Positions 11,057 to 32,000 are shown, counted from the stretch's first letter. The stretch is 32,000 nucleotides of DNA from Candidatus Electronema halotolerans (GCA_942493095.1 OW818675.1:1260001-1292000); one strand, 5' to 3'. Notes: generated from the letters alone by a model not told the origin. Program-made: numbers and translations.

Positions 11057-12727
11057 TCAGTTGTTGGCCAATTCGATCAGCCGCTCGACAATGGCGGCCA
11101 ACGGCGCGCTGGAGCCGTTGGAAGCGCTTGCCGCTGCGGACTGCCAGTTTGCAGGCACTGCCTGTCCCTCGGCCCAGGAGCCGCCCGGTTCGTAGGAAGT
11201 CCGCGCCCGGTCGCCCGGCCCCGGAGTCCAGAGGAAGTCAGGATGGCGGTTCAGGTACCATTCTCCGCCAATGATCTTGCCGGAGAAATCCAGCTCCAGA
11301 TCATAGTAATAGCGGACTGTGTCAATCGCATCCGCAGCCGAGCTGTCAACCGTGCTCTGGCTGGGCGCAGTCTCGACCGTGTAGGAGACATCCATAGCAA
11401 TGCCGACCATGCTGTCTGTCTGCGGGCTGCGGTACTTGGCAAAACGGTCATTGCTGAAGCTGCTCTTGGACACCGTGGCCTCTGCCAGACTGTTGCGGTA
11501 CACCATTTCCTTGGGATTGAAATAGTAGTAGCGGTAGCCGACCATGGGCTGGTTCCAGACTTCGTAGTCAAAAGTCGCGTCAATGACCATGCTCCGCCCG
11601 GATGCGCCGATCTGATTGACCACGGCCAGATGCCAGGTGCCGGGATTGGTGTCAAAGCAGCGGTCAGAGAGAATCCGCTTGTTCTGCGGATCAGTCGGCG
11701 GATTTGTTTCATTGCAGCGGCCGCCGATGAATTTGACTTGGGGGCTGACTTTAGCCCAGAGCAAGGAGGCCAGTCCTTTGATGTCAGACGGATAAAAGGT
11801 CAGCCATGTTTGCCCGTCCGCAGCCAGGACTTTGACGGATTTTTGGGGCCGGGCCAGCATGTAGGCGGCTGTCGCCCAGCCGTGGCAGATGCCCATCCAA
11901 GCGGCCACGGAGCCGGATTGTCTGTGATAATATTCACCCTCAGCCCACATTTTTTTGGTCAGGGTGTAGTTGCTGTCGCCGACTAAGATGTCATATTTTT
12001 CCGAAGGCGAAAGCAGATCAATGGCCGCTGCATCGCCGCTGGCCAAAATGCTGGCTGCCGGACGGCTTTCAACATAATCGTTGCATTCCTTCCAGTCTAA
12101 TGAATCAGGAAAGCTGGGATCATCATACCGCTTGCCAAGAATGCCCCGGCAGATGGCCCAGTAGTCACAGGACCACGGCGTGTTCCGCAGCCGCACATTC
12201 CGCAGGCCGCTGCTCTCCATGCTTTGCAGACCGGAGTGGCTGAAGGTGTCCACCAAATTGACGGCCTGATCATTGTAATTCCATGCAGCCCGGCCTGCGG
12301 CATCCTCTTCTGATTCAAGAACCAGCTTGCGCTGCTCGTCGCGGGCCTCCACATAGGCCTTTTCCTCAAGCGCGGCCTGATCAAAAGGTGGCTGCGAGAC
12401 CTCGTTCTCTCCGGCCTGCTCCTTCTGCTTGGGCGGCTGCCGGTCCATGAATGCGCCAATATTGTTGACAAAACTCTGCAAATCCGCATTGACCGCCTGT
12501 TCGTCATTCTCAGTCTCAGACCCGGACGCAGCCGCAGCCGGTTTCGGTTCTGCTTCGTGACTGTGCGGATGTTCGTGATCATGATCATGAACATGGTCAT
12601 GCCCGCAGCAGGAATTGCCATGATCATGACTGTGATCAGCAGGTTTGGAGCTGCTGTCACAGCTGCAGCCACAGCTTTTGAAGAAGTTTAACAGAGGGCA
12701 GTTGTGTTTTTTTGACGAGTTGGACAT
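11057..12727 (-). CDS. GP42-type 'transglutaminase elicitor' family protein with His/Cys-rich N-terminal tract
   Basis: VWNQPMVGYRYYY (11522-11560) matches the oomycete Pep-13 peptide VWNQPVRGFKVYE at 7 of 13 positions, including W2 and P5 (11 of 13 if conservative M/V, Y/F, R/K and Y/V replacements are also counted). The candidate nucleophile context is WMGICHGWATAAY (11876-11893). The N-terminus reads MSNSSKKHNCPLLNFFKSCGCSCDSSSKPADHSHDHGNSCCGHDHVHDHDHEHPHSH. I chose the start at 12727 because AGGAGG lies 5 nt upstream; the track start at 12769 lacks this. Confidence 0.7.
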   Translation of the reverse strand: MSNSSKKHNCPLLNFFKSCGCSCDSSSKPADHSHDHGNSCCGHDHVHDHDHEHPHSHEAEPKPAAAASGSETENDEQAVNADLQSFVNNIGAFMDRQPPKQKEQAGENEVSQPPFDQAALEEKAYVEARDEQRKLVLESEEDAAGRAAWNYNDQAVNLVDTFSHSGLQSMESSGLRNVRLRNTPWSCDYWAICRGILGKRYDDPSFPDSLDWKECNDYVESRPAASILASGDAAAIDLLSPSEKYDILVGDSNYTLTKKMWAEGEYYHRQSGSVAAWMGICHGWATAAYMLARPQKSVKVLAADGQTWLTFYPSDIKGLASLLWAKVSPQVKFIGGRCNETNPPTDPQNKRILSDRCFDTNPGTWHLAVVNQIGASGRSMVIDATFDYEVWNQPMVGYRYYYFNPKEMVYRNSLAEATVSKSSFSNDRFAKYRSPQTDSMVGIAMDVSYTVETAPSQSTVDSSAADAIDTVRYYYDLELDFSGKIIGGEWYLNRHPDFLWTPGPGDRARTSYEPGGSWAEGQAVPANWQSAAASASNGSSAPLAAIVERLIELANN

Positions 12728-13024
12728 GATCTCCTCCTTGAATTGGATGGTGCTGCCGAAAAACTGCATAATTTGAATCTACTCCAAAATCAGCAGATCG
12801 CCAAGGCATTGCCTGAAAAATATCATAGTTCATCCTTGAGGCGGCTGAAAGGGCCTGCGGCGGCAAAAACAGGAATTTTTTCCGCAATGCGAGGAGGCAA
12901 GAGCGCTGTTCAACCTTGCCCGGATTTCTTAAATCTGGTAAAAGAATCCGCAGGATGACACGGACAGCCTCTTTTGAGAGGTATTTTTATAAAATACAAG
13001 ATGTTGCGTGACAAGCGGCAATAA

Positions 13025-13373
13025 GTGAAATTGACAAATTTTCTTCAAGAAACACAGAATTCATTAAAAAACAACTACCTTGCCGATGACAGGCCGTGGG
13101 TTGTCGCTTTTTCCGGCGGCAAGGACTCGACATTGGTTTTGCAACTTGTTTATGAGATGCTGCTTGAACTTGACGACCAAGCTGTGAAACCAGTGCATAT
13201 CGTCTGTTCAGACACCCGCGTGGAGCCGCCCAATGTTGCTGAATATCTTCACAACAGTCTGCGGCAGCTGGAAGAACATGCAAAGCAATGCCGTTTTCCT
13301 CTCTTTGTTCATATTGTTCAGCCAACACCTGATGAAAGTTTCTGGTTTATTCTGGTTTAATGTGATAGGGAAA
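13025..13373 (+). pseudogene. dndC: 5' remnant of DNA phosphorothioation gene dndC (PAPS-reductase-fold sulfurtransferase)
   Basis: DDRPWVVAFSGGKDSTLVLQLVYEML...VHIVCSDTRVEPPNV...PDESFW has the P-loop SGGKDS and SDT.VE motifs of DndC N-termini. A 10-bp tandem duplication (tctggtttat/tctggtttaa, 13341-13360) shifts the frame. Without it the reading continues FWFNVIGK, then ends. About 110 of roughly 500 codons remain. Confidence 0.75.
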
Positions 13374-13903
13374 GTTGCATGATGGATGGAATTAACAGAT
13401 ATTTTAAATTGTTTTATAATCTCCGGGCGGATACGAGCAAGAGACGATGGTCTGAAGCAACTTGCTGCCGGGCACCGCACAAGCCTCTTTTCTTGCTTTC
13501 TATTTTTGATCTGATAGCATCAGGTGGAATAGTTGACAATTTTATAACGCCTTCGTTTGAACTCTCTGATTCTTTCGCAGCATACTGGTCAGCTGTCATG
13601 CCTCTTGGAAGTACCGGTTTAATGTGTTTGCCATTTTACCATCTTGCCACATCTGGATTTTGGCACCTTATACCGCAGCCAGATATGTTAGATGAACGTG
13701 GCCGTTCTATCAAATCAATGAAGCGTTTTACTTTTTTCTATCAGGGAGCCAAATTTAGTGATGATTTGTTTTTGTTGTTGAAAAACGAGCATTTCTTAGA
13801 AAAGCTGAGAACAATCTTGATTAAAACTTATTTTTCTCCTGATGCTCAGATAGCTTTAGCGAAGCAATCAATAATAAATTTAGAGTCATCGAAATATAGC
13901 TGT

Positions 13904-14091
13904 GTGGATTCAACTCGCAAGTGCAACTTTTTTTGGTTATCCAAAAAGCATAGGTTGGCTGGCACTTTGAATACTTCATGTAAATTTTCAATTATTTTCT
14001 CTTAGTTAGCGACAAAAGCAAAGTTGTGACACTCCCGTAACTGCCTTTTCTTGCAACCAAAAAAAGTTGCACTTGGAACTTGAATTCACCC
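13904..14091. mobile_element. MITE-like element (about 188 bp) with 35-bp terminal inverted repeats
   Basis: 13904-13938 (gtggattcaactcgcaagtgcaactttttttggtt) matches the reverse complement of 14055-14089 at 31/35 positions. It is flanked by a direct repeat (c)tgt at 13900-13903 and 14091-14094. Excision restores the host reading frame. Confidence 0.65.
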
Positions 14092-14443
14092 TGTAAAATA
14101 CTTGGGACAAATGAAATAATAAAAAATTATGAATTAACAATAGAAGATGAAGGTGTAAAAAATAAAATTCGGAGTCGAGGATTTCGCAAAGCCATTGTTA
14201 AATTGTATGAGCACCGTTGTGCTCTATGCGGCCTTCGCATCTTGACACCAGAAGGGCATACAGTTGTTGAAGCTGCTCATATTATACCTTGGAGTGCAAG
14301 TAAAAATGATCAACCACAGAACGGCATGGCCTTGTGTCGATTATGTCATTGGTTTTTTGACGAAGGTTTGATGGGAGTAGGAAAGTGTTATGAGATTCTG
14401 ATTTCACCTCTTGTCCGTCAGGGTGACAATTATCCCGGCCATA

Positions 14444-14569
14444 TAGCGGTTATGGGTTGAACGGCTATCAAATATCTTTGCTTTGTCAAAATTTTTGTAT
14501 GTATAAATTCAACAAGTTAAATTAAGCATCAATATATCAGGGTGATCACCATTCGGCGTGTAACCGCTA
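14444..14569. mobile_element. 126-bp MITE derived from an IS630-family element, TA target duplication
   Basis: The termini are tagcggtta.../...taaccgcta, flanked by TA (14442-43 and 14570-71). The left end matches the left end of the IS630 copy at 24285 at 23/30 positions. The right end matches at 21/29. Excision plus one TA restores the host frame. Confidence 0.7.
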
Positions 14570-14837
14570 TATAGAGACTATGACCGGTCGGGGCATTTTA
14601 AAACCTGAGAAAAAGATGTTCTGGCCTGATTTAGAATATTTAGAAATCCATAGAAAAGAAATTTTCAGAAAAAATTGATGTTATAAGACTCAATCATTAA
14701 ATTCATAGTTACTCACTTATCGAAAATCCTTGCAGAGGTATATTTTATAACTCGCCTATTACAAAAAAAATGACGGTCAACCTCCTGATATACGATATGA
14801 ACTGATGCTGACCACTTTTGCCGTCACCGTGTACAAG

Positions 14838-16022
14838 ATGAACCCGCTTTTCCGCCGTTTTAGCGACCAGCTCCATGACCTTGACAGCCAGAACCTGCGC
14901 CGCAGGCTCGTGCCGGTGCGACCTCTTGCCAAAGGACTGATTGAGGTTGACGGCAGGCAGCATCTGAATCTCTCCGGTAACGACTATCTCGGCCTTGGCA
15001 GTGATGCCGTCCTGCTGGATGCGTTTTATGCGCATCTTCATAATGAAGACAGGCTGCAATGCTGCGCTCCGGGCAGCGGCGCATCCCGTCTGCTCACTGG
15101 CAGCCGGGCAAGCTGTCATCAGTTGGAGGACTCGTTGGCGCAGCTTTACGGTAAGGACGGCGCACTGCTCTTCAACTCCGGCTGGCAGCTCAACAGCGGC
15201 CTGCTGCCAGCTTTGCTCCGCAAGGGCGATCTGGTCTTGGCGGACAAACTCTGTCATGCCAGCCTGATCGACGGCCTGCGCCTCTCTGCGGCTAAGGTCA
15301 TCCGCTATCCCCATCTTGATTATGAGCGACTGGAAGAGCTGCTCCGGCAGCACAGCAGCCAGTCCGGCATGATCTTTGTGGTCACGGAATCCATATTTTC
15401 CATGGACGGCGACTGCGCTGACCTGCGGCTGCTGGCAGCCTTGCGGGACAACTACGGGGCCGTGCTCTATGTGGATGAGGCCCATGCGGTCGGAGTGCGC
15501 GGCGAACGCGGCTTGGGCCTGGCTGAAGAGCAGGGTGTCCTTGCGCAGATTGATCTGCTGATCGGCACCTTTGGCAAGGCGTGGGCTGGACAGGGGGCGT
15601 TCGTGGTCGGCAGCCGGATGCTCTGCGATTTTTTGATCAACATGGCCCGTTCCTTTATTTTCACCACCGCCCTGCCGCCGGTCAGCATTGCCTGGCTCAA
15701 CTTCATTCTGCCCAAGATAGTTGCCATGCGTTCCGAGCGGCAGCATCTGGCCAAGCTGGCGGAACAGCTTCGCCGCAGGCTGCACCACCTGAATATTACG
15801 ACTGGCGGCGCAAGCCAGATTGTTCCAGTCCTGCTGGGCGAGGCGGCGGCGGCCCTTGCGGCAGCAGAACGGCTGCGCAGCCAAGGCTGGTGGGTGCAGG
15901 CGGTCAGGCCACCGACCGTGCCGCCCAACACAGCCCGGCTCCGGCTTTCTTTGAGCGCGGCCATGCGCGAGGAGCAGCTGCGCAGCTTGGCCGACCAGCT
16001 TGCCGCCGCAGTCCTTTCCTGA
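14838..16022 (+). CDS. bioF: 8-amino-7-oxononanoate synthase (alpha-oxoamine synthase family)
   Basis: NLSGNDYLGLG, GSGASRLLTG, ESIFSMDGDCADL, YVDEAHAVGVRGERG and the PLP-lysine context GTFGKAWAGQG are present. I set the start at MNPLFRRF (14838) rather than 14805. Confidence 0.85.
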   Translation: MNPLFRRFSDQLHDLDSQNLRRRLVPVRPLAKGLIEVDGRQHLNLSGNDYLGLGSDAVLLDAFYAHLHNEDRLQCCAPGSGASRLLTGSRASCHQLEDSLAQLYGKDGALLFNSGWQLNSGLLPALLRKGDLVLADKLCHASLIDGLRLSAAKVIRYPHLDYERLEELLRQHSSQSGMIFVVTESIFSMDGDCADLRLLAALRDNYGAVLYVDEAHAVGVRGERGLGLAEEQGVLAQIDLLIGTFGKAWAGQGAFVVGSRMLCDFLINMARSFIFTTALPPVSIAWLNFILPKIVAMRSERQHLAKLAEQLRRRLHHLNITTGGASQIVPVLLGEAAAALAAAERLRSQGWWVQAVRPPTVPPNTARLRLSLSAAMREEQLRSLADQLAAAVLS

Positions 16023-16180: not shown

Positions 16181-19060
16181 ATGATTATCTTTAACTCCAA
16201 ACAGTTTTCAACTGTTCTCTTTGCTGTATTCTTTGCATATCCTTCGCTGACTACCGCGAAAATCCTGCTGGTGCCGAATGAATATCCGACCATCAGCAAG
16301 GCAATGCAGGCTGCCGGGCCGAATGACACAGTTCGGGTGGCGGCGGGCGCCTACCCTGACAACGTCATCATGCGGCCCGGCGTGACCTTGGAAGGCGGCT
16401 GGGACAGCACTTTTCAGCAGCATGAGCCGACAGTGAACAGAACAATCATTGATGGCAGCATGCGGGGCGGCTATGTGGTCTTTGGCGCGGACAAGGCCGT
16501 GCTGGACGGCTTTCTCATCACTGGCGGCAAACCGCCGATGATGATGCCGGATTTGGATGTCGGGCCAGGGGTGTATTGCGACTCCGCCTCCTTCACGGTG
16601 CGGAACAGCTTCATCACTGGCAACAATACGGCTGGCATCTATGCCCGCAACTGTCAGCTCTCCGCCACAGGCAATGTCATTGCCGCCAATGGCAGGGCAG
16701 GCATTTTTCTTGAAGATGCCTGCGCGGCGGAGATCAAGGGCAACCTGATCAGCCGCAATCTCTGGGCAGGCATCAATGTTGGCGGCAAGGCGCCTTCAAA
16801 AGTGGATATTGCCAACAACGCGGTGTACAGCAATCAGAAGGCGGGCATCAATGTCGCCTTTGCTCAAGGTTCAGTCAGCAACAATCTGATTCACAAAAAC
16901 AGAGAGGCTGGAGTCCGCTGCGGGCTGGCACCCATGCAGATCATCAACAACACCATTGCTGACAATGGCTTGGCCGGTGTTTCCACGGCTGAATCCGCCG
17001 GACTGCTGACAGCGGCTGCGCCAGCAGGCCAATCTGGCAAGACAGATACATCCGCCACGTCAAAGCTGCCGATCATTAAAAACAATATCATTGCCAACAA
17101 TGGGCAGGCTGGCATCAAGTCCTACGGCAGCGGCTACACCTACAACCTGCTTTACGGCAACAACAAAGTGGAAGGCTTTTTCCCGAATTATCTCTGGTAT
17201 ATCCGCCTCCAGCTCGGCGGCTACGAAGATCAGGCCACCTTTGAGAAGACCAAGAACATTCTTGCTGCGCCGCTCTTTGTCAATCCTGCCCAGCATGACT
17301 ACCATCTTCGGCCCGGCTCGCCTGCCATTGACCAAGGCGACCCGGAGCAGCAATACAACGACAAGAATTTTGGCCCTTCTCTTGGTGCTGACCGCAATGA
17401 CATGGGAGTCTATGGCGGGCCAGGCACTGTGGCCGAGAAGAGGCCGCCCAATCAGCCGCCCCAAGCTGGCATTGAGCCGCTCAAGAAGCAGGTTTATGCT
17501 GGTGACAAAGTGGTGCTCAACGGCGCAGTCAGCCGTGATCCGAACGGCGATGAGATTCACTATCAGTGGCGGCTGACCGGCAAGCCCTTCCAAAGCACGG
17601 CTGCCTTGAAGCCGGAAAAGGACGGCACTTGCGCCTTCACCCCTGACAAGGGCGGGCAGTATGCGGTCCAGCTCACAGTCACAGACCGCTGGGGCATGCA
17701 AGGCAGGCCGGTTCGGCTGACCATCAATGCTGACCCGGACAAACCGCCCACAGCCAAGATCAGCAAGCCAATGGGACCGGTCAAGGTCGGCGAGGCGGTC
17801 AAACTGTCCGCCATTGACAAGAAAAAACAAAATGGCAGCGAGCTGACTTTTTCTTGGATGATGCTCAGGCGGCCCAGCGACAGTCAGGCCCTGCTTGATG
17901 ATGCGCAGGCCGAGCGGCCCAGTTTCACGCCGGACGCGCCCGGCTGCTACACCATGCGCCTGACCGTGGCCAATGGCAAGAAGTCGAGCCAGCCGGACAC
18001 CGTGCATTTCTGCACCCAGGAAAGCCGGGTGCCGGGCCGCCGGTCAGTGCCGGATGAATACCCGACCATTCAGGCGGCCATTGATGCTGCCAAGGCAGGC
18101 GAGGACATCCTTGTCCAGCCAGGCACCTACCGTGAGCACCTGATTGTTGACAAACCGGTCAATCTGATCGGCGCAGGCAGGCCAAGACCGGTGATTGACG
18201 GCGGCAGCAAGGAGGGTGACGAGGCCGCAGTCTTTGTCTGTTATTTGGACAATACTGCGCAGGGCCGGATTCAAGGCTTCAAAGTCACAGGCGGCGGCAC
18301 TGGTCAGTATGGGCACGGCATCCAGATCCTCAACTCCTCGCCGGAGATTGTTGACAATGAGATTGTCGGCAACCAGCATGTGGGCGTGGGCATCCACGGG
18401 CAGTACAAATTCACCAAGGACACTAGGATTCACCACAACGACATCCATGACAACGCCATTGGCGTGAGCAACGGCTTGGGCGCAGGCGGCATGATCTACA
18501 ATAATGCCATCTACAACAACAAAGTGACCGGCATTGGTGTGCGCGGTTTGGCAAGACCGATAGTCCGCAAGAACAATCTCTACGGCAACTACATCGGCAT
18601 TGGGGTCCGGGAAGAAGCGTATCCGCAGGTTGAAGACAACATTGTCCAAGACAATGTGGTGGGCATGGCAGTCAATCCCGGCGTTGCCGGAGCGATTTAT
18701 GCGGAAAAGAACAAGATCACGCTGCGGAACAATCAGATACTCAGCAACCGGCAGGCAGGCATCTTTATTTCCTCGCTCAACAAAAGCGAGGTTGTGGCGC
18801 AGGGAAATGCCATCCGAGGCAACAGCGAGGCGGCTGACCGCGACAGCCGCACCGGCGGAGTGGTGAGCGGCTATCCGCATGAAGCCTTGGTCAAAGTCCT
18901 GCTCAACAGCAACATGGTCAGCGGCAACAACGGGCGGGATGTTCAGCTCTACAAGGAACTGGGCGAATCTGCCGGAACCATTGGCAGTTCCGCTGGCCGC
19001 AAGCCCGACTTCCAAGGCATGGGAATGCCTATGGGCGGCCCAAGCGGCATGGCGCAGTGA
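16181..19060 (+). CDS. Secreted protein with two right-handed parallel beta-helix (PbH1/NosD-like) modules separated by PKD/Ig-like domains
   Basis: A signal-peptide-like N-terminus (MIIFNSKQFSTVLFAVFFAYPSLTTA). Two module heads (VPNEYPTISKAMQAAGPNDTVRVAAGAY and VPDEYPTIQAAIDAAKAGEDILVQPGTY). Many N-x-I/V-x-x-N beta-helix rungs (NNTAGIYA, NGRAGIFL, NQKAGINV and others). Two YQW/FSW Ig-like segments lie in the middle. Confidence 0.75.
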   Translation: MIIFNSKQFSTVLFAVFFAYPSLTTAKILLVPNEYPTISKAMQAAGPNDTVRVAAGAYPDNVIMRPGVTLEGGWDSTFQQHEPTVNRTIIDGSMRGGYVVFGADKAVLDGFLITGGKPPMMMPDLDVGPGVYCDSASFTVRNSFITGNNTAGIYARNCQLSATGNVIAANGRAGIFLEDACAAEIKGNLISRNLWAGINVGGKAPSKVDIANNAVYSNQKAGINVAFAQGSVSNNLIHKNREAGVRCGLAPMQIINNTIADNGLAGVSTAESAGLLTAAAPAGQSGKTDTSATSKLPIIKNNIIANNGQAGIKSYGSGYTYNLLYGNNKVEGFFPNYLWYIRLQLGGYEDQATFEKTKNILAAPLFVNPAQHDYHLRPGSPAIDQGDPEQQYNDKNFGPSLGADRNDMGVYGGPGTVAEKRPPNQPPQAGIEPLKKQVYAGDKVVLNGAVSRDPNGDEIHYQWRLTGKPFQSTAALKPEKDGTCAFTPDKGGQYAVQLTVTDRWGMQGRPVRLTINADPDKPPTAKISKPMGPVKVGEAVKLSAIDKKKQNGSELTFSWMMLRRPSDSQALLDDAQAERPSFTPDAPGCYTMRLTVANGKKSSQPDTVHFCTQESRVPGRRSVPDEYPTIQAAIDAAKAGEDILVQPGTYREHLIVDKPVNLIGAGRPRPVIDGGSKEGDEAAVFVCYLDNTAQGRIQGFKVTGGGTGQYGHGIQILNSSPEIVDNEIVGNQHVGVGIHGQYKFTKDTRIHHNDIHDNAIGVSNGLGAGGMIYNNAIYNNKVTGIGVRGLARPIVRKNNLYGNYIGIGVREEAYPQVEDNIVQDNVVGMAVNPGVAGAIYAEKNKITLRNNQILSNRQAGIFISSLNKSEVVAQGNAIRGNSEAADRDSRTGGVVSGYPHEALVKVLLNSNMVSGNNGRDVQLYKELGESAGTIGSSAGRKPDFQGMGMPMGGPSGMAQ

Positions 19061-20783: not shown

Positions 20784-20942
20784 TCAGTCTGCCGGAAAAA
20801 AATGCTCTTTTTCCGCTTGGCATTTTGGGCAGACCCAGTCATCAGGCAAATCTGCAAAGGCCGTGCCCGGCTCAATGCCGTTGTCCAAATCGCCTTCTGC
20901 CGGATCGTAGATGTACCCGCAGGGGCACTCATATTTCTGCAT
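20784..20942 (-). CDS. Rubredoxin (atypical first Cys motif)
   Basis: [48 protein letters not shown] aligns with classical rubredoxins. GGAGGA lies 6 nt upstream of the ATG at 20942. The longer track ORF (to 21074) is an unsupported extension. Confidence 0.85.
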
Positions 20943-21107
20943 GATCTTTCCTCCGAAAATAGGTTGACAGGCCACTGCAGCCTTGCTGCGCAGCTCTGAA
21001 CGACATGAAAGGAGTATAATGAACAGGGCGGCATTAGGCAAGAAAAAGGGAGACAGCTTCGTGGTCACAAACAAAAGAGGTAACTACTCAGGCATCCGCC
21101 AAGCCTC

Positions 21108-22616
21108 TTGACAAAATCAACAGGTAAAGATTATGCTGCCGTTATGAATTTCAGTGTTCCTAGTGAAAAAGAAGTCCGTGCTGCATACGCAGAAGGCGAA
21201 GAAGCGGTCGTCGCCCTGTTTAGCAGTATAACTGCGCAGGTTGAAAACCTCGCCGCTCAGTCAGCCAAGCAGTCCGAGATATTGAAGGATTTGCAGGCCC
21301 GGCTGTCGAAAAACAGTCGGAACAGCGGGAAACCGCCTTCGAGCGATGGATACGGTAAAGCGAAGCGAACGGAAAGTCTGAGAGAGTCCGGCAGGAAGCC
21401 GAACGGCGGCCAGCCAGGTCATCAAGGGCATACTCTTGAGCGGTCTGCGGCGCCGGATTCTACGGAGAGGTATAAATCCGAGGAATGCGCGGCTTGCAAA
21501 ATGTCGCTTGCGGATGTCGTCGCTGTCGGAGAGGAGGAACGGCAGGTTTATGATATTCCGGCGATTCGGATTGAAGTGACCTCGCATCGAGCGGAAATAA
21601 AAATCTGTCCCGGCTGCGGCACGGAAAACAGAGGCAAATTCCCGGAAAACGTCGGACAGGGCATCCGTTACGGCACGGGGGTGAAAACTTGGGCGGCATA
21701 TTTCGCGAACCAGCATCATATTCCGCTTGAACGGGCTGCGCAGATTATCGAAGACCTGACCGGGCATTCCGTCTCCGAGGGTTCGCTGCTGAAGGCATCG
21801 GAAGAGCTTTGCGGATGCGTGCGTCCTTCAACGGAAGCAGTCGAAAAACTGCTCATGAATACCGATGTGTTACATGCCGATGAAAGCGGAGTCCGCGTGA
21901 AAGGGAAGCTGCACTGGCTGCATGTCGCTTCGACGAACTGCCTCACCCATTATTCGGTGCATGAAAAACGGGGAAAAGAGGCGATGGACGCAGCGGGAAT
22001 CCTTGGAAAGTTCACAGGAACAGCGACGCATGATCATTGGAAATCGTACTTCAGCTATGAAAACTGCGGTCATGCGCTGTGCAATGCGCATCATCTCCGG
22101 GAACTCAAGTTCATAGAAAAACAGTATGGACAAGTTTGGGCCGGCGAGATGGCCGAGCTGTTGCTTGAAATAAAAGGCGCGGCTGAAAAGCTGAAGCCGG
22201 ATCGGGACGGCTTCGCGCCGGAGAAGATCGAAGAATTTGAGCGGCGGTATGATGAAATCGTCCGACGGGGTTTTGCCGACAATCCGTTCACTCCGCCTAA
22301 GGAGAAAAAACGAGGACGGGCGAAGAAGACTCCGCCGCTCAATTTGCTGACACGGATGCGTGATTACAGGGCGGAGACCCTCGCATTCATGTATGATTTC
22401 CGGGTTCCGTTCGACAACAACGCGGCGGAAAGAGATGTGCGGATGATCAAGGTCAAGCAGAAGGTTTCCGGCTGCTTCCGAACACTTGAGGGGGCAGAAC
22501 GATTCGCCTGTATCCGGGGATATATCTCCACGGTCCGTAAAAATTCAAGAAACATTTTTGAAGCGATCAAAGATGCTTTCCTTGGAAGTCCTTTTATCCC
22601 CGATTCCGCAGTATAA
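21108..22616 (+). CDS. IS66-family transposase
   Basis: A zinc-finger region (CAACK...CPGCG), then HADESGVRVKGKLHWLHV, ATHDHWKSY, CNAHHLRELKF and PFDNNAAERDVRMIKVKQKVSG are present. The start is either TTG 21108 (track) or the in-frame ATG at 21144. Confidence 0.85.
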   Translation: MTKSTGKDYAAVMNFSVPSEKEVRAAYAEGEEAVVALFSSITAQVENLAAQSAKQSEILKDLQARLSKNSRNSGKPPSSDGYGKAKRTESLRESGRKPNGGQPGHQGHTLERSAAPDSTERYKSEECAACKMSLADVVAVGEEERQVYDIPAIRIEVTSHRAEIKICPGCGTENRGKFPENVGQGIRYGTGVKTWAAYFANQHHIPLERAAQIIEDLTGHSVSEGSLLKASEELCGCVRPSTEAVEKLLMNTDVLHADESGVRVKGKLHWLHVASTNCLTHYSVHEKRGKEAMDAAGILGKFTGTATHDHWKSYFSYENCGHALCNAHHLRELKFIEKQYGQVWAGEMAELLLEIKGAAEKLKPDRDGFAPEKIEEFERRYDEIVRRGFADNPFTPPKEKKRGRAKKTPPLNLLTRMRDYRAETLAFMYDFRVPFDNNAAERDVRMIKVKQKVSGCFRTLEGAERFACIRGYISTVRKNSRNIFEAIKDAFLGSPFIPDSAV

Positions 22617-22625
22617 AAAACGAGT

Positions 22626-22662
22626 AAGGCCGTCTTCAGCACTTCTGAAAACGGCCTTTTTT
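22626..22662 (+). terminator. Rho-independent terminator inside the right end of the IS66 element
   Basis: aaggccgt-c-ttcag...ctgaa-a-acggcctt followed by TTTT, 10 nt after the transposase stop. Confidence 0.7.
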
Positions 22663-23099
22663 GTCAGGCTGAGTAGTTACAGAGCTTGTTTGATGCAGTG
22701 GCTGCTGGTTCTTCTGAGCTGGAGGCAGCAGCCAAGTTTGTTCGGGGCATTGCCCGCAATGCGTGCCGTTTCACCTGAACACTAATTTTTCCGATAATTT
22801 ACGAGCTGCTTTCCCTGCGAGGTGATTCGACTGGGCCGTTTTGTGCTGTTGGCAGGATTGCGGATGGACGAGTAAAAAATACCTGCGATGTAAAGCAGAT
22901 ACCTTTTTCACAACTGACGCTGCACTTGCTGTACAACGGTCTGTCAATAATCCTTTAAAAAAGGAGGAGGCATCCTTGCAATAGGCATCCTTTTTTTGCT
23001 ATAAAAAGATATGACCTTATTGGTTTTATGTCGCATAGCAGCATAAAAAAGAAATGCTAAGCCTTTTAACAAAAAAAGGCGCAGCTCAAGGAGAGATTG

Positions 23100-24287
23100 A
23101 TGAATAAAAAGACCTTAACAGCATTATGTTTGGCATCACTGATGCTTACAGCTAAAATGGCGCAAGCGCAAGAAGAGCAGGCTCCTTCATGTGAAACTGC
23201 TTATGCGTTTGGTTCTAAAACCTTCAGCGATATTGGCTTTACTCGTTGGGGGTGGGAGATAGTTCTACAGGGAAATGAGTTTGTAAGCACCAAAGTTTAT
23301 GCTGGTGCGGGACAGACTGACATCTTGAAAGGAACGTATGTAGGGGATCTCGAAGTTACTAGGGACAACGATCTTGTCACCTTTCAACTCCAGATGCTGG
23401 ATGGCTTCTCTGTAAGCGAAACACATATTTATGTGGGAACTTCTGATCTCTCGAAATCAGCACCTGGGCAATATGCCAATCTTACTGAAGGTAAGATCAA
23501 TTCTTTTGGCAATGGCCTGTTTAAAGTTGAACTTAATGATACTGTCACCGAGGGCGCGAAGTTATATGTTGTCGTTCATGCAGTAGTTTGTACTGGTGGA
23601 GGGGATCCAAATAATGGTGGAGACGATCCAAATGCCGAATGTGACCCAGCAGACAGCCCGTGGAAAGGAATTTGGGACAGTGCTGTAGAGTACAAGGCTG
23701 ACGATGTTGTTGAATATGAAGGCAGCAGCTATGTCAACGTTTGCTGTGATCCGCAAACAGCAGGCACAGCACCTCCTGATGATTTGTTTAATTCCGTCAC
23801 TAACGAAGGTTGTTGGAAACTCGTAGCTGAGAAAGGCGATACTGGAGCGACAGGTGAAACAGGTCCGACCGGCGAGCAAGGTGAAGTAGGTCCCGAAGGT
23901 CCGCAAGGGCCAATAGGCCCCGCTGGCCCGCAAGGTCTGAAGGGTGATAAAGGTGACAAGGGCGACACCGGCGATCAGGGAGAAGTAGGTCCCGAAGGCC
24001 CGACCGGTGCTCAAGGCCCGCAGGGCGAAGTAGGCCCGATTGGCCCGCAAGGTCTGAAGGGTGATAAAGGTGACAAGGGCGACACCGGCGATCAGGGAGA
24101 AGTAGGTCCCGAAGGCCCGACCGGTGCTCAAGGCCCGCAGGGTGAAGTAGGCCCGATTGGCCCGCAAGGTCCCGAAGGCCCGACCGGTGCTCAAGGCCCG
24201 CAGGGCGAAGTAGGCCCGATTGGCCCGCAAGGTCTGAAGGGTGATAAAGGTGACAAGGGCGACACCGGCGATCAGGGAGAAGTATAG
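23100..24287 (+). CDS. 5' fragment of the collagen-like gene (signal peptide, N-terminal domain, first 50 G-X-Y triplets), terminated by a TAG supplied by the IS end
   Basis: This is the track ORF 23097..24287. ATG 23100 is preferred over TTG 23097. The stop TAG at 24285-24287 is the first three bases of the IS630 terminus. Confidence 0.85.
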
Positions 24288-25329
24288 CGGTTTCGTATTG
24301 AACAGATATCAAACCCAGCAATGACGGAAAAACGATTTGATTGATTTTGACTTAACCGTTTTCAGAGATATATCATAAGCTTCCATCAGCTCACGCTCTG
24401 TTCTCGGCTTCAATTTTCTTATAGTGTTTTTCATTACTGACCAGCAGTATTCAATAGGGTTCAGTTCAGGACGATAAGGAGGGAGGAAAATGATCTTCGC
24501 TCCTGTACTTCTGATCAAAGCGAGAGCTTCTTTGTTTTTATGAGGACTGGCATTGTCAAGAACGACTGTCTTGCTGCTGTCAAGATATTTCAAAAGATAA
24601 TTTTTTATATAGAAATAAAAGACATCTCCTGTCATGGTGCCTTTAAATTTCATGCACTTCAATATTTTTCCAAACTTTACAGCTCCTATCATGCTTATTC
24701 TTTTCCCTTTACCTGAAGGTCTTTTTGAAAAAGCTCTTGTTCCTTTTCTTGATCTTGCAAATTTTCTCGACATGTTCAAACAGCATCCTGTCTCATCAAT
24801 AAAGATGAAATTCTTTTTGTCAGCCTCGAGCAGGCCTGCAAGGTAATTAACTGTCTTTGCTATATTTTCCTCTTTATACGCCGCCGGATCGCGGAAAGTT
24901 TTTTTTTCCGGCTGATTTTCAGTCTGGCGAGAGTTTCGCACAGCGTGGAAGGTGCTATTTTTAAATTGAATTTCTCGTATAAGCGATCACACATCTCTTC
25001 AAGCGTAAGATCGTTCTCGTCATCAATCATGCTGGTCAGAAAAGGCATATGAACTTCCTTGATTTTCGGAGGATTTCCGCCTTTATGAGGCTTCGGCTCA
25101 AGCGTCCCCTCAGTCTTCCATCTTTTTACAAGACTTTGAACAAATTTATAGGAAACGTCAAGCAAATCTGCAGTTCTTCTCAATGATTTCTGTTTTTCAT
25201 AAACAGACAAGACTTTCTTTCTGAAATCAATAGAATAAATCATGGCAGACCTCCGTGTGTAAAAAAATGGAAAAAACAGACAAGTCAAGTTTAATCTTTT
25301 TCTGATAACCATACAACCTGAAACCGCTA
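24285..25329 (-). mobile_element. IS630-family (Tc1/mariner-like) insertion sequence, 1045 bp, TA target-site duplication
   Basis: The termini are tagcggtttc.../...gaaaccgcta: 10 bp perfect, about 27 bp imperfect. TA occurs at 24283-84 and 25330-31. The uninterrupted array motif gagaagTAggtccc is reconstituted on excision. The element is visibly AT-rich relative to the host repeat. Confidence 0.85.
24309..25243 (-). CDS. IS630-family DDE transposase, encoded in two overlapping frames joined at an A9 run
   Basis: orfA (25243..24860) carries the HTH part, MIYSIDFRKKVLSVYEKQKSLRRTADLL, with GGAGG 6 nt upstream. orfB (24941..24309) carries FIFIDETG, VVLDNASPH and PPYRPELNPIEYCW, the DD(35)E triad. 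A -1 shift on AAAAAAAAA (24899-24907) would give ...KISRKKKTFRDPAAYKEE... and a 311-aa fusion. Confidence 0.8.
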
Positions 25330-25331
25330 TA

Positions 25332-28300
25332 GGTCCCGAAGGCCCGACCGGTGCTCAAGGCCCGCAAGGCGAAGTAGGCCCGATTGGCCCGCAAGGTCTG
25401 AAGGGTGACAAGGGCGACACTGGCGATCAGGGTCTGCCTGGCAACGACGGTGCTCAAGGCCCGCAGGGTGAAGTAGGCCCGATTGGCCCGCAAGGTCTGA
25501 AGGGTGACAAGGGCGACACTGGCGATCAGGGTCTGCCTGGCAACGACGGTGCTCAAGGCCCGCAGGGTGAAGTAGGCCCGATTGGCCCGCAAGGTCTGAA
25601 GGGTGACAAGGGCGACACTGGCGATCAGGGTCTGCCTGGCAACGACGGTGCTCAAGGCCCGCAGGGCGAAGTAGGCCCGATTGGCCCGCAAGGTCTGAAG
25701 GGTGATAAAGGTGACAAGGGCGACACCGGCGATCAGGGAGAAGTAGGTCCCGAAGGCCCGACCGGTGCTCAAGGCCCGCAAGGCGAAGTAGGCCCGATTG
25801 GCCCGCAAGGTCTGAAGGGTGATAAAGGTGACAAGGGCGACACTGGCGATCAGGGTCTGCCTGGCAACGACGGTGCTCAAGGCCCGCAGGGTGAAGTAGG
25901 CCCGATTGGCCCGCAAGGTCCCGAAGGCCCGACCGGTGCTCAAGGCCCGCAGGGCGAAGTAGGCCCGATTGGCCCGCAAGGTCTGAAGGGTGATAAAGGT
26001 GACAAGGGCGACACTGGCGATCAGGGTCTGCCTGGCAACGACGGTGCTCAAGGCCCGCAGGGTGAAGTAGGCCCGATTGGCCCGCAAGGTCTGAAGGGTG
26101 ATAAAGGTGACAAGGGCGACACCGGCGATCAGGGAGAAGTAGGTCCCGAAGGCCCGACCGGTGCTCAAGGCCCGCAGGGTGAAGTAGGCCCGATTGGCCC
26201 GCAAGGTCTGAAGGGTGATAAAGGTGACAAGGGCGACACTGGCGATCAGGGTCTGCCTGGCAACGACGGTGCTCAAGGCCTGCAGGGTGAAGTAGGCCCG
26301 ATTGGCCCGCAAGGTCTGAAGGGTGATAAAGGTGACAAGGGCGACACTGGCGATCAGGGTCTGCCTGGCAACGACGGTGCTCAAGGCCCGCAGGGTGAAG
26401 TAGGCCCGATTGGCCCGCAAGGTCCCGAAGGCCCGACCGGTGCTCAAGGCCCGCAGGGCGAAGTAGGCCCGATTGGCCCGCAAGGTCTGAAGGGTGATAA
26501 AGGTGACAAGGGCGACACTGGCGATCAGGGTCTGCCTGGCAACGACGGTGCTCAAGGCCCGCAGGGTGAAGTAGGCCCGATTGGCCCGCAAGGTCTGAAG
26601 GGTGATAAAGGTGACAAGGGCGACACCGGCGATCAGGGAGAAGTAGGTCCCGAAGGCCCGACCGGTGCTCAAGGCCCGCAGGGTGAAGTAGGCCCGATTG
26701 GCCCGCAAGGTCTGAAGGGTGATAAAGGTGACAAGGGCGACACTGGCGATCAGGGTCTGCCTGGCAACGACGGTGCTCAAGGCCTGCAGGGTGAAGTAGG
26801 CCCGATTGGCCCGCAAGGTCTGAAGGGTGATAAAGGTGACAAGGGCGACACTGGCGATCAGGGTCTGCCTGGCAACGACGGTGCTCAAGGCCCGCAGGGT
26901 GAAGTAGGCCCGATTGGCCCGCAAGGTCCCGAAGGCCCGACCGGTGCTCAAGGCCCGCAGGGTGAAGTAGGCCCGATTGGCCCGCAAGGTCTGAAGGGTG
27001 ATAAAGGTGACAAGGGCGACACCGGCGATCAGGGTCTGCCTGGCAACGACGGTGCTCAAGGCCCGCAGGGTGAAGTAGGCCCGATTGGCCCGCAAGGTCT
27101 GAAGGGTGATAAAGGTGACAAGGGCGACACCGGCGATCAGGGAGAAGTAGGTCCCGAAGGCCCGACCGGTGCTCAAGGCCCGCAGGGTGAAGTAGGCCCG
27201 ATTGGCCCGCAAGGTCCCGAAGGCCCGACCGGTGCTCAAGGCCCGCAGGGCGAAGTAGGCCCGATTGGCCCGCAAGGTCTGAAGGGTGACAAGGGCGACA
27301 CTGGCGATCAGGGTCTGCCTGGCAACGACGGTGCTCAAGGCCCGCAGGGTGAAGTAGGCCCGATTGGCCCGCAAGGTCCCGAAGGCCCGACCGGTGCTCA
27401 AGGCCCGCAGGGTGAAGTAGGCCCGATTGGCCCGCAAGGTCTGAAGGGTGATAAAGGTGACAAGGGCGACACCGGCGATCAGGGAGAAGTAGGTCCCGAA
27501 GGCCCGACCGGTGCTCAAGGCCCGCAGGGTGAAGTAGGCCCGATTGGCCCGCAAGGTCTGAAGGGTGATAAAGGTGACAAGGGCGACACTGGCGATCAGG
27601 GTCTGCCTGGCAACGACGGTGCTCAAGGCCTGCAGGGTGAAGTAGGCCCGATTGGCCCGCAAGGTCTGAAGGGTGATAAAGGTGACAAGGGCGACACTGG
27701 CGATCAGGGTCTGCCTGGCAACGACGGTGCTCAAGGCCCGCAGGGTGAAGTAGGCCCGATTGGCCCGCAAGGTCCCGAAGGCCCGACCGGTGCTCAAGGC
27801 CCGCAGGGCGAAGTAGGCCCGATTGGCCCGCAAGGTCTGAAGGGTGATAAAGGTGACAAGGGCGACACTGGCGATCAGGGTCTGCCTGGCAACGACGGTG
27901 CTCAAGGCCCGCAGGGTGAAGTAGGCCCGATTGGCCCGCAAGGTCTGAAGGGTGATAAAGGTGACAAGGGCGACACCGGCGATCAGGGAGAAGTAGGTCC
28001 CGAAGGCCCGACCGGTGCTCAAGGCCCGCAGGGTGAAGTAGGCCCGATTGGCCCGCAAGGTCTGAAGGGTGATAAAGGTGACAAGGGCGACACTGGCGAT
28101 CAGGGTCTGCCTGGCAACGACGGTGCTCAAGGCCTGCAGGGTGAAGTAGGCCCGATTGGCCCGCAAGGTCTGAAGGGTGATAAAGGTGACAAGGGCGACA
28201 CTGGCGATCAGGGTCTGCCTGGCAACGACGGTGCTCAAGGCCCGCAGGGTGAAGTAGGCCCGATTGGCCCGCAAGGTCTGAAGGGTGATAAAGGTGACAA

Positions 28301-29036
28301 GGGCGACACTGGCGATCAGGGTCTGCCTGGCAACGACGGTGCTCAAGGCCCGCAGGGTGAAGTAGGCCCGATTGGCCCGCAAGGTCTGAAGGGTGATAAA
28401 GGTGACAAGGGCGACACCGGCGATCAGGGAGAAGTAGGTCCCGAAGGCCCGACCGGTGCTCAAGGCCCGCAGGGTGAAGTAGGCCCGATTGGCCCGCAAG
28501 GTCTGAAGGGTGATAAAGGTGACAAGGGCGACACTGGCGATCAGGGTCTGCCTGGCAACGACGGTGCTCAAGGCCTGCAGGGTGAAGTAGGCCCGATTGG
28601 CCCGCAAGGTCCCGAAGGCCCGACCGGTGCTCAAGGCCCGCAGGGCGAAGTAGGCCCGATTGGCCCGCAAGGTCTGAAGGGTGACAAGGGCGACACTGGC
28701 GATCAGGGTCTGCCTGGCAACGACGGTGCTCAAGGCCCGCAGGGTGAAGTAGGCCCGATTGGCCCGCAAGGTCCCGAAGGCCCGACCGGTGCTCAAGGCC
28801 CGCAGGGTGAAGTAGGCCCGATTGGCCCGCAAGGTCTGAAGGGTGATAAAGGTGACAAGGGCGACACCGGCGATCAGGGAGAAGTAGGTCCCGAAGGCCC
28901 GACCGGTGCTCAAGGCCCGCAGGGTGAAGTAGGCCCGATTGGCCCGCAAGGTCTGAAGGGTGATAAAGGTGACAAGGGCGACACTGGCGATCAGGGTCTG
29001 CCTGGCAACGACCGGTGCTCAAGGCCCGCAGGGTGA
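25332..29036 (+). pseudogene. Middle fragment of the collagen-like gene (409 G-X-Y triplets, phase 0), ending at a frameshift-induced TGA
   Basis: ggt ccc gaa ggc ccg acc ggt gct caa... reads [42 protein letters not shown]... The sense frame contains no ATG, GTG or TTG codon. After the extra C at 29012/13 it reads NDRCSRPAG, then TGA at 29034-29036. Confidence 0.8.
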
Positions 29037-32000
29037 AGTAGGCCCGATTGGCCCGCAAGGTCTGAAGGGTGATAAAGGTGACAAGGGCGACACTGGCGAT
29101 CAGGGTCTGCCTGGCAACGACGGTGCTCAAGGCCCGCAGGGTGAAGTAGGCCCGATTGGCCCGCAAGGTCCCGAAGGCCCGACCGGTGCTCAAGGCCCGC
29201 AGGGCGAAGTAGGCCCGATTGGCCCGCAAGGTCTGAAGGGTGATAAAGGTGACAAGGGCGACACTGGCGATCAGGGTCTGCCTGGCAACGACGGTGCTCA
29301 AGGCCCGCAGGGCGAAGTAGGCCCGATTGGCCCGCAAGGTCTGAAGGGTGATAAAGGTGACAAGGGCGACACTGGCGATCAGGGAGAAGTAGGTCCCGAA
29401 GGCCCGACCGGTGCTCAAGGCCCGCAGGGCGAAGTAGGCCCGATTGGCCCGCAAGGTCTGAAGGGTGATAAAGGTGACAAGGGCGACACTGGCGATCAGG
29501 GTCTGCCTGGCAACGACGGTGCTCAAGGCCCGCAGGGTGAAGTAGGCCCGATTGGCCCGCAAGGTCTGAAGGGTGATAAAGGTGACAAGGGCGACACCGG
29601 CGATCAGGGAGAAGTAGGTCCCGAAGGCCCGACCGGTGCTCAAGGCCCGCAAGGCGAAGTAGGCCCGATTGGCCCGCAAGGTCTGAAGGGTGACAAGGGC
29701 GACACTGGCGATCAGGGTCTGCCTGGCAACGACGGTGCTCAAGGCCTGCAGGGTGAAGTAGGCCCGATTGGCCCGCAAGGTCTGAAGGGTGATAAAGGTG
29801 ACAAGGGCGACACCGGCGATCAGGGAGAAGTAGGTCCCGAAGGCCCGACCGGTGCTCAAGGCCCGCAAGGTGAAGTAGGCCCGATTGGCCCGCAAGGTCT
29901 GAAGGGTGATAAAGGTGATAAAGGTGACAAGGGCGACACTGGCGATCAGGGAGAAGTAGGTCCCGAAGGCCCGACCGGTGCTCAAGGCCCGCAGGGTGAA
30001 GTAGGCCCGATTGGCCCGCAAGGTCTGAAGGGTGATAAAGGTGACAAGGGCGACACCGGCGATCAGGGAGAAGTAGGTCCCGAAGGCCCGACCGGTGCTC
30101 AAGGCCCGCAGGGCGAAGTAGGCCCGATTGGCCCGCAAGGTCTGAAGGGTGATAAAGGTGACAAGGGCGACACTGGCGATCAGGGTCTGCCTGGCAACGA
30201 CGGTGCTCAAGGCCCGCAGGGTGAAGTAGGCCCGATTGGCCCGCAAGGTCTGAAGGGTGACAAGGGCGACACTGGCGATCAGGGTCTGCCTGGCAACGAC
30301 GGTGCTCAAGGCCCGCAGGGTGAAGTAGGCCCGATTGGCCCGCAAGGTCTGAAGGGTGACAAGGGCGACACTGGCGATCAGGGTCTGCCTGGCAACGACG
30401 GTGCTCAAGGCCCGCAGGGCGAAGTAGGCCCGATTGGCCCGCAAGGTCTGAAGGGTGATAAAGGTGACAAGGGCGACACCGGCGATCAGGGAGAAGTAGG
30501 TCCCGAAGGCCCGACCGGTGCTCAAGGCCCGCAAGGCGAAGTAGGCCCGATTGGCCCGCAAGGTCTGAAGGGTGACAAGGGCGACACTGGCGATCAGGGT
30601 CTGCCTGGCAACGACGGTGCTCAAGGCCCGCAGGGTGAAGTAGGCCCGATTGGCCCGCAAGGTCTGAAGGGTGACAAGGGCGACACTGGCGATCAGGGTC
30701 TGCCTGGCAACGACGGTGCTCAAGGCCCGCAGGGCGAAGTAGGCCCGATTGGCCCGCAAGGTCTGAAGGGTGATAAAGGTGACAAGGGCGACACCGGCGA
30801 TCAGGGAGAAGTAGGTCCCGAAGGCCCGACCGGTGCTCAAGGCCCGCAAGGCGAAGTAGGCCCGATTGGCCCGCAAGGCCCGCAGGGCGAAGTAGGCCCG
30901 ATTGGCCCCGAAGGCCCGCAAGGTCTGAAGGGTGATAAAGGTGACAAGGGCGACACCGGCGATCAGGGTCTGCCTGGCAACGACGGCGCTCAAGGCCCGC
31001 AGGGCGAAGTAGGCCCGATTGGCCCGCAAGGTCTGAAGGGTGATAAAGGTGACAAGGGCGACACTGGCGATCAGGGTCTGCCTGGCAACGACGGTGCTCA
31101 AGGCCCGCAGGGTGAAGTAGGCCCGATTGGCCCGCAAGGTCCCGAAGGCCCGACCGGTGCTCAAGGCCCGCAGGGTGAAGTAGGCCCGATTGGCCCGCAA
31201 GGTCTGAAGGGTGATAAAGGTGACAAGGGCGACACTGGCGATCAGGGTCTGCCTGGCAACGACGGTGCTCAAGGCCTGCAGGGTGAAGTAGGCCCGCAGG
31301 GTGAAGTAGGCCCGATTGGCCCGCAAGGTCCCGAAGGCCCGCAAGGTCTGAAAGGTGACAAGGGCGACACCGGCGATCAGGGAGAAGTAGGTCCCGAAGG
31401 CCCGACCGGTGCTCAAGGCCCGCAGGGTGAAGTAGGCCCCGAAGGCCCGCAAGGTCCCGCTGGTCCTGAAGGCCCGCAGGGGGCAACTGGTCCGCAGGGT
31501 GAACAAGGTCCGCAAGGTCCGAAGGGTGACACCGGCGAATGCGAGTTGCCGTCAGTTCAGTGTGACTTCGGCCAGATATTGACTGGTTGGATCAATGGTC
31601 AACCAATCTGTGAAGATATGCCGGTTAACCTGATCGGTGGCTGCGAAACTGCCTTTGCTTACGGTGACACGACACTGAATTCCTTCCTCAACACCAATCG
31701 TTGGGGATGGCAAAACACTGTAGCCCCAGGAACGACGCTGACTCAGCCGATTTATGCCGGAGCTGGACAGAATGATATAACCAAGGGAACCAAGGTTGGT
31801 GATCTGACTATAGATTACACCGATACCACCAAAGTGACCGTCACCTACACCATGACAGCAGATGATATTATCATGAAGGAAACCCATCTGTATGTGGGTG
31901 AGGAGAGTGTCACAACGGCTGCACCGGGTCAGTATGGCCTTCAGGATGAAGGTTTGCTCAACGCAACCACTGACAGCTACACAGTGAATGTCAGCGGCAA
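29014..32000 (+). pseudogene. 3' fragment of the collagen-like gene (280 further triplets in phase +1, Cys-rich linker, C-terminal globular domain), partial at window end
   Basis: Phase-1 reading from ggt at 29014 continues [19 protein letters not shown]... to ...[69 protein letters not shown]...[20 protein letters not shown]... No stop occurs before nt 32000. Confidence 0.8.

Follow-up and report, generated by a model that had tools for sequence, protein, structure and literature searches.

An interrupted gene for a collagen-like protein, probably a secreted rod, in the cable bacterium Candidatus Electronema halotolerans

A stretch of 32,000 nucleotides (nt) from the cable bacterium Candidatus (Ca.) Electronema halotolerans (GCA_942493095.1 OW818675.1:1260001-1292000), hereafter called the window, carries towards its 3' end a gene for a collagen-like protein that is missing from the list of open reading frames (ORFs). 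After position 24287, this list holds no plus-strand ORF of at least 100 amino acids (aa). Three very long ORFs of 2062, 1240 and 831 aa are listed instead on the minus strand (25327-31515, 25227-28949 and 28991-31486, together covering 25227-31515). Without the requirement for a start codon, the plus strand proves free of stop codons from 23070 to 24284 and from 25263 to 29033 in one phase, and from 28957 to 31998 in another. The translations of all three stretches contain perfect Gly-X-Y repeats. The Pfam Collagen profile (PF01391) matched the plus-strand pieces with 84.6, 624 and 435 bits against a gathering cut-off of 27.2 (E value of 1e-192), and the product thus combines the uninterrupted Gly-X-Y repeat and the score above the gathering cut-off that define a member of this profile.

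The sense frame uses 28 codons, about 19 of them commonly, and contains no in-frame ATG, GTG or TTG. A start-dependent ORF finder is therefore blind to the collagen frame and reports the opposite strand. The minus-strand ORFs mirror the codon bias of the Gly-X-Y repeat. Their only matches in Pfam were Telethonin and Phage_holin_3_2, with no single stretch above threshold, and these three large ORFs are therefore antisense artefacts and not genes. Our results agree here with a preliminary description of the same DNA, which had assigned the sense to the plus strand and a collagen-like nature to its product, had noted the small codon set and the ORF list reduced to three huge minus-strand entries, had blamed the lack of ATG, GTG and TTG, and had dismissed the antisense ORFs. 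The antisense peptide that it quoted was found in the minus-strand reading, and the two plus-strand phases, in which stop codons would have spoken against it, are both open across the collagen tract.

One intact giant gene is not what the assembly contains. As far as the assembly is accurate, two lesions break the allele, namely an IS630-family insertion sequence (IS) at a TA within a repeat and a +1 frameshift; a further element, of the IS66 family, is present upstream of the gene. The IS630-family element (minus strand, 24285-25329, 1,045 base pairs (bp)) has the terminal inverted repeats TAGCGGTTTC and is bordered by a duplicated TA (24283-24284 and 25330-25331). Its transposase is encoded by two overlapping ORFs (25312-24860 and 24941-24309) that matched Pfam DDE_3 (E value of 8e-34) and HTH_Tnp_IS630, and respectively positions 2-116 and 124-295 of the NCBIfam model transpos_IS630. 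The element thus has the features known for the IS630 family, namely a DDE_3 domain with an N-terminal HTH, short inverted repeats, and insertion into a TA that is duplicated. Unlike a standard IS630, this copy encodes its transposase in two frames, with an A9 run (minus strand, 24899-24907) in the ORF overlap. The run may be a programmed -1 frameshift site, may reflect a decaying element, or may be a homopolymer error of Nanopore sequencing. When the element is excised together with one TA (24285-25331, in all 1,047 bp, a number divisible by three), a 40-nt junction is recovered of which the array holds 16 more copies. The insertion site is therefore exactly within a canonical repeat unit.

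The frameshift is due to an extra C at 29013 on the plus strand, in the context GGCAACGAC-C-GGTGCTCAA. It is present at only one of 33 repeat junctions of that type; among the other 32, 31 read GGCAACGACGGTGCTCAA and one reads GGCAACGACGGCGCTCAA. To judge from the repeat units, the variant resembles a chimera with CCGACCGGTGCTCAA, which is present in 30 copies. The assembly, which derives from a brackish-sediment sample (Sereika et al. 2023), was made from Nanopore R9.4.1 reads as a Flye metagenome, with Racon short-read polishing (PMC10030654), and the extra C is either a real mutation or a polishing artefact, which sequence alone does not tell apart. The ATG of the collagen-like gene is preceded, at a distance of about 420 bp, by the IS66-family element (plus strand, 21080-22680; Pfam DDE_Tnp_IS66, E value of 6e-48; transposase ORF 21108-22616), which has a rubredoxin gene (minus strand, about 20784-20942) on its other side. 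The element is missing from a collinear contig (L054) that is otherwise 90-99% identical, and it may separate the collagen-like gene from its native promoter region.

Removing the IS630-family element (24285-25331) and the C at 29013 opens a frame that extends over 2,618 aa to the end of the window and includes 740 Gly-X-Y triplets without interruption. This continuity is that of a conceptual repair, as the DNA as given is split by the 1,047 bp and by the +1 shift. An earlier figure of 739 consecutive triplets was thus close to the count obtained here (50 + 409 + 281 = 740), and its word “consecutive” holds for the repaired gene only. In the repaired product, a signal peptide, an all-beta domain, a CBM5/12-like cysteine junction, the 740 triplets, a further cysteine junction and a second all-beta domain follow each other. 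In front of the plus-strand gene, a ribosome-binding site (AGGAG, 23089-23093) is separated by 6 nt from the ATG at 23100. The putative signal peptide (23100-23171), already recognized in the preliminary description, was judged by eye to be of the Sec type, and its core is conserved in paralogues and orthologues of cable bacteria. A lipoprotein signal was considered and rejected, because the residue before the cysteine is a Leu, which makes a non-canonical lipobox.

The N-terminal globular domain, or CETA domain (23178-23639, about 140 aa), carries the motifs CETA(F/Y)A.G, RWGW, YAGAGQ.D, ETH.Y.G and AHAVVC. It is followed by the junction module (23634-23834), with cysteines and a CBM5/12-like motif, which matched positions 2-22 of the 44 of Pfam CBM_5_12 (PF02839) with 20.9 bits, below the cut-off of 26.2. 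Residues 180-257, within this module, matched PHROG 5073, “tail fiber protein” (E value of 7e-12), and the module is kept in the proteins of Ca. E. aureum and of Ca. Electrothrix sp. YB6. A sequence search of the PDB with the module gave spurious matches only. The collagen tract consists of 50 triplets at 23835-24284 (84.6 bits), 409 triplets at 25332-29012 in the same phase (624 bits), and 281 triplets at 29014-31542 that end with GEC (435 bits). It had been thought to run up to the window end; the segment 31543-32000 is non-collagenous and leads into a globular domain. The translated sequence places a second cysteine junction at 31543-31641, with a pattern C..G...G......IC(E/D) that the proteins of YB6, Ca. 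E. aureum and Ca. E. aarhusensis also have behind their collagen tracts. This short motif is a candidate site of C-terminal nucleation or of a disulfide knot. The slightly more specific motif C..G.(I/M/L).G......IC(E/D) was observed in every cable-bacteria collagen-like protein seen (the window protein, L018, P0130 and L002).

The C-terminal globular domain (31642-32000), assigned by homology, is a copy of the N-terminal type (38-39% identity between the two) and is cut by the window end. With 100% identity it matches the final part of P0133, a near-identical protein encoded on contig L054, which runs on with ...VNVSGKPVKVVAHAVTCTKD-stop. The 3' end of the gene is taken from P0133 and its contig, and about 16 codons and a stop are thus expected beyond the window, for an unbroken product of about 2,634 aa.

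The end domain belongs to an uncharacterised family with a predicted all-beta fold. Neither Pfam nor NCBIfam gave a match on the N-terminal domain. A profile search returned 219 homologues at an E value of at most 1e-5, with no Pfam domain on the region among the matches listed. Most of these homologues are secreted proteins of small size, and cable bacteria contribute many of them. A confident AlphaFold2 model of the end domain, built with 68 sequences, has nine strands and an all-beta fold (predicted local distance difference test of 89.4, predicted template modelling (TM) score of 0.82). A Foldseek search with this model gave no match at an E value of at most 0.001 in the PDB or in BFVD; the best viral fold match, a Pithovirus protein (E value of 3e-3, TM of 0.49), was borderline and uninformative and was set aside. 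Stand-alone secreted proteins of the CETA type, 150-250 aa long, are present in several cable bacteria, including P0034 of Ca. E. halotolerans itself (GCAAIG_03310). The domain is also found in Bacteroidota, Bdellovibrionota, Myxococcota and Clostridia, and in L004, L012 and P0003-P0005 an additional conserved and unannotated domain precedes it.

The collagen tract is built from six modules: two modules of 15 residues, a version of the second that is one triplet shorter, GLPGND, GEVGPEGPT and GPEGPT. Their order is irregular, and exact DNA repeats reach up to 887 bp. Together, irregular modules and long exact repeats point to recent unequal recombination. Pro occupies 35% of the X positions and Gln 34% of the Y positions, and no G-P-P triplet is present. 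K-G-D sequences stabilise triple helices through interchain Lys-Asp pairs. Each chain of the window protein has 147 K-G-D motifs and a net charge of -210, so that the charge-pair stabilisation put forward in the preliminary description is plausible. A related discussion is found in PMC11923368.

The argument from size is weaker than had been claimed. According to PMC11923368, which cites a review by Qiu et al., predicted prokaryotic collagen-like polypeptides reach about 2,000 triplets, with many interruptions, and size alone is therefore no record. A tract of 740 triplets is not unprecedented, although 740 triplets without one interruption are unusual. Such very long predicted prokaryotic proteins and the window tract alike far exceed animal collagen chains. 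The window tract differs from them in being shorter and uninterrupted and in having end domains of its own, with cable bacteria as the hosts in our sample. A search with 600 aa of the tract, in which 8,000 candidates were scored, returned many collagen-like proteins, those among the best 120 all being of at most 1,045 aa; the score saturates with query length, so this search does not gauge firmly the longest database proteins.

The N-terminal part of the window protein is 100% identical to the hypothetical protein GCAAIG_05880 of Ca. E. halotolerans. Intact proteins with the architecture of the window protein are encoded in two other cable bacteria. The one from the complete genome of Ca. Electrothrix sp. 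YB6 has 1,287 aa and 291 triplets (61% identity in the N-domain and 81% in the C-domain), and P0130, from the closed genome of Ca. E. aureum, has 698 aa and 92 triplets (30% and 50% identity). The orthologue of Ca. E. aureum GS is recorded as LDFHOB_13345 (CAK8723660.1). P0133, from the short-read contig L054, is much closer (99% and 100% identity) and has 544 aa and 44 triplets. The order signal peptide, CETA domain, CBM-like junction, collagen, cysteine junction, CETA domain, which we propose as that of a family, was found in the repaired window protein, in P0130 and in the YB6 protein. Tract length is thus hypervariable between species (92, 291 and 740 triplets) while the end domains are conserved (30-61% identity for the N-terminal and 50-81% for the C-terminal one); made of short modules with long exact repeats, the tract changes quickly in length by unequal recombination. 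No synteny was found with the YB6 or Ca. E. aureum loci, and their kinship to the window gene therefore rests on architecture and end-domain similarity only. In a short-read assembly of Ca. E. aureum the gene is split in two, and contigs of two other cable bacteria are broken inside collagen tracts.

What is new here is that two copies of an uncharacterised all-beta domain flank a collagen tract, a fusion limited in our sample to cable bacteria. Among the 53 loci at the time of the domain scan, only five, all from cable bacteria, had a collagen tract next to a CETA domain. The scan was seeded with an alignment of four sequences, a version with six being too divergent to serve as a seed; it did not return the Ca. 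E. halotolerans genome, and its patterns cannot match the Ca. E. aureum sequence. YB6 carries a second collagen-like gene (L018, 12525-15689), which lies downstream of its counterpart of the window gene at a distance of about 1.4 kb. The product of this second gene shares the signal-peptide core, has one CETA-type domain, about 146 triplets and a charged repeat that resembles a coiled coil (KEEKLKQKELDR), and its cysteine-rich C-terminal region is a different one.

Several known collagen-like proteins share part of this organization. BclA, the collagen-like glycoprotein of the Bacillus anthracis exosporium, has a globular end domain and a highly polymorphic number of triplets that sets the length of the surface fibres, so that its tract works as a spacer. 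Its triplets number 17-91, its C-terminal trimerisation domain is C1q/TNF-like and its N-terminus targets the exosporium; the host is a Gram-positive spore former. The window protein has in common with BclA a collagen tract and a globular end domain; it differs in its 740 triplets, in its two unrelated all-beta domains without a match in the PDB, and in its Gram-negative host. The C1q/TNF-like jelly-roll of BclA/ExsJ-type proteins was not recovered, as the end domains had no Pfam match and no Foldseek match in the PDB at the threshold given above. Scl1 and Scl2 of Streptococcus pyogenes form a hydroxyproline-free, charge-stabilised helix whose trimer is nucleated by a non-collagen domain. Their collagen tracts comprise about 50-80 triplets, and the proteins carry a helical V domain at the N-terminus and a wall anchor of the LPXTG type. 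A hydroxyproline-free collagen tract with charged residues is common to them and to the window protein, which lacks the helical V domain and the anchor: its N-terminal domain is all-beta, and its C-terminus, known from P0133, ends with ...AHAVTCTKD, without LPXTG. Phage tail fibres (PHROG 5073) share with it a CBM5/12-like module before the collagen tract, and differ in genomic context, which is chromosomal here, in the signal peptide and in the other terminal domains.

The real gene of the locus, on the plus strand, is that of a collagen-like protein of Ca. E. halotolerans, predicted to be a secreted rod. Taken as a whole, the locus is probably best explained as the Ca. E. halotolerans copy of a cable-bacteria family of collagen-like proteins that form an exported trimeric rod, present here as a broken allele. 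In the proposed mechanism, nucleation at the terminal domains or at the cysteine junctions would let three chains zip into a homotrimeric triple helix about 0.63 µm long (2,220 residues x 0.286 nm). Its stability without hydroxyproline would come from the Pro at X, the Gln at Y and the Lys-Gly-Asp pairs. The strongly acidic, dumbbell-shaped rod would be exported by the Sec pathway to the cell envelope, where the collagen part may form a fibre or a spacer and partners may be bound at its end domains. Rod length would be altered by repeat recombination; in BclA the number of repeats determines how long the fibre is, and this analogy fits the conserved ends and the variable tract.

A number of observations weigh against this explanation. 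As the gene is broken in the window, the bacterium may make no collagen-like protein at all. The triplet copy number, the occupancy by the IS and the frameshift all depend on one R9.4.1 metagenome assembly, and the short tract of the near-identical P0133, from a short-read contig, makes the copy number in particular dependent on that Nanopore assembly. The K-G-D pairs are not kept in the YB6 or Ca. E. aureum tracts, and that mode of stabilisation is therefore specific to the window allele. No outer-membrane export or anchor signal was recognised in the protein. No published link between cable bacteria and collagen-like proteins was found in the literature searched, and the supplements of two cable-bacteria studies (PMC11976967 and PMC13047784) contain neither the word “collagen” nor the accessions of the orthologues.

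The gene could be intact in the living population, with the frameshift at 29013 being a polishing error and the IS630-family element being carried by some cells only or misplaced by the assembler. The extra C gives exactly the string expected if short reads of the 30 CCGACCGGTGCTCAA units had been mis-mapped onto one AACGACGGTGCTCAA unit, polishing was done by Racon with short reads on an R9.4.1 Flye assembly, and the orthologues are intact in two other closed genomes. However, the clean inverted repeats and the TA duplication at a canonical repeat junction are those of a real transposition, a second IS is present just upstream of the gene, and closed cable-bacteria genomes are reported to be IS-rich; we regard this possibility as unlikely. 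It is rather unlikely, too, that the length of the array is an assembly artefact and that the true gene is much shorter, like that of the 544-aa P0133. The 99-100% identity of the end domains of P0133, which has only 44 triplets, would fit such an artefact, as would the exact repeats of up to 887 bp. Yet P0133 comes from a k-mer short-read contig (k119_2449209), in which tandem repeats normally collapse, the module order of the window array is irregular and non-periodic rather than a simple reiteration, and the closed YB6 genome also carries a tract of 291 triplets.

A phage tail-fibre gene in a prophage remnant is very improbable. Collagen-like repeats are common in tail fibres and the junction module matched a tail fibre family, but no phage gene was found near the locus: Ysc84, rubredoxin and beta-helix/PKD protein genes are located upstream, and TPR, HTH, MMPL and RNase H genes follow the gene on the collinear contig. 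The Sec signal peptide and the lack of a significant viral structure match for the end domain argue in the same direction. That one or more of the minus-strand ORFs are real genes is hardly credible: their length (831-2062 aa) and their start codons would speak for them, but they are low-complexity mirrors of Gly-X-Y with spurious family matches only, and a ribosome-binding site, a signal peptide and conserved end domains are all encoded on the plus strand, whose product also has orthologues.

If the gene for the collagen-like rod protein is broken as it appears, the protein is probably dispensable for Ca. E. halotolerans, which argues against a core role in electron conduction. The envelope of cable bacteria has been studied for its shared periplasm, conductive fibres and junction structures, and few of its protein parts are known. 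The family is a candidate envelope component, being secreted and length-variable, with two uncharacterised domains that are fused to collagen only in cable bacteria in our sample. As a speculative and quite unlikely proposal, it could be a structural element specific to the cable-bacteria envelope, a Sec-exported, strongly acidic sub-micrometre rod with two binding heads that would tie or space parts of the shared periplasm or sheath. Such rods might be located around the conductive fibres or at cell junctions, for example, with species tuning their length by repeat expansion and contraction. The uninterrupted, hydroxyproline-free tract of 740 triplets, rich in K-G-D pairs (147), would further lend itself to studying how very long triple helices fold and keep their register. 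For annotation, the locus illustrates that a repeat frame free of start codons generates antisense phantom ORFs, and that IS insertions and long-read errors split such genes.

Neighbouring genes in the window include the following three, for which no link with the collagen-like gene was established. A 959-aa beta-helix/PKD protein is encoded on the plus strand at 16181-19060. The segment 8869-12769 contains, on the minus strand, genes for a transglutaminase-elicitor-like protein (11057-12769) and a caspase-domain protein (9968-11005). Two AT-rich islands, 842-1830 and 13000-15000, have a GC content of about 0.40-0.42, against about 0.58 elsewhere. The former has two minus-strand ORFs (842-1408 and 1405-1830), of the PIN and Mrr_cat-like types, and the latter an unannotated ORF of 208 aa (13379-14005) and an HNH endonuclease ORF (14080-14460). 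Both islands are probably acquired defence or toxin-antitoxin cassettes.

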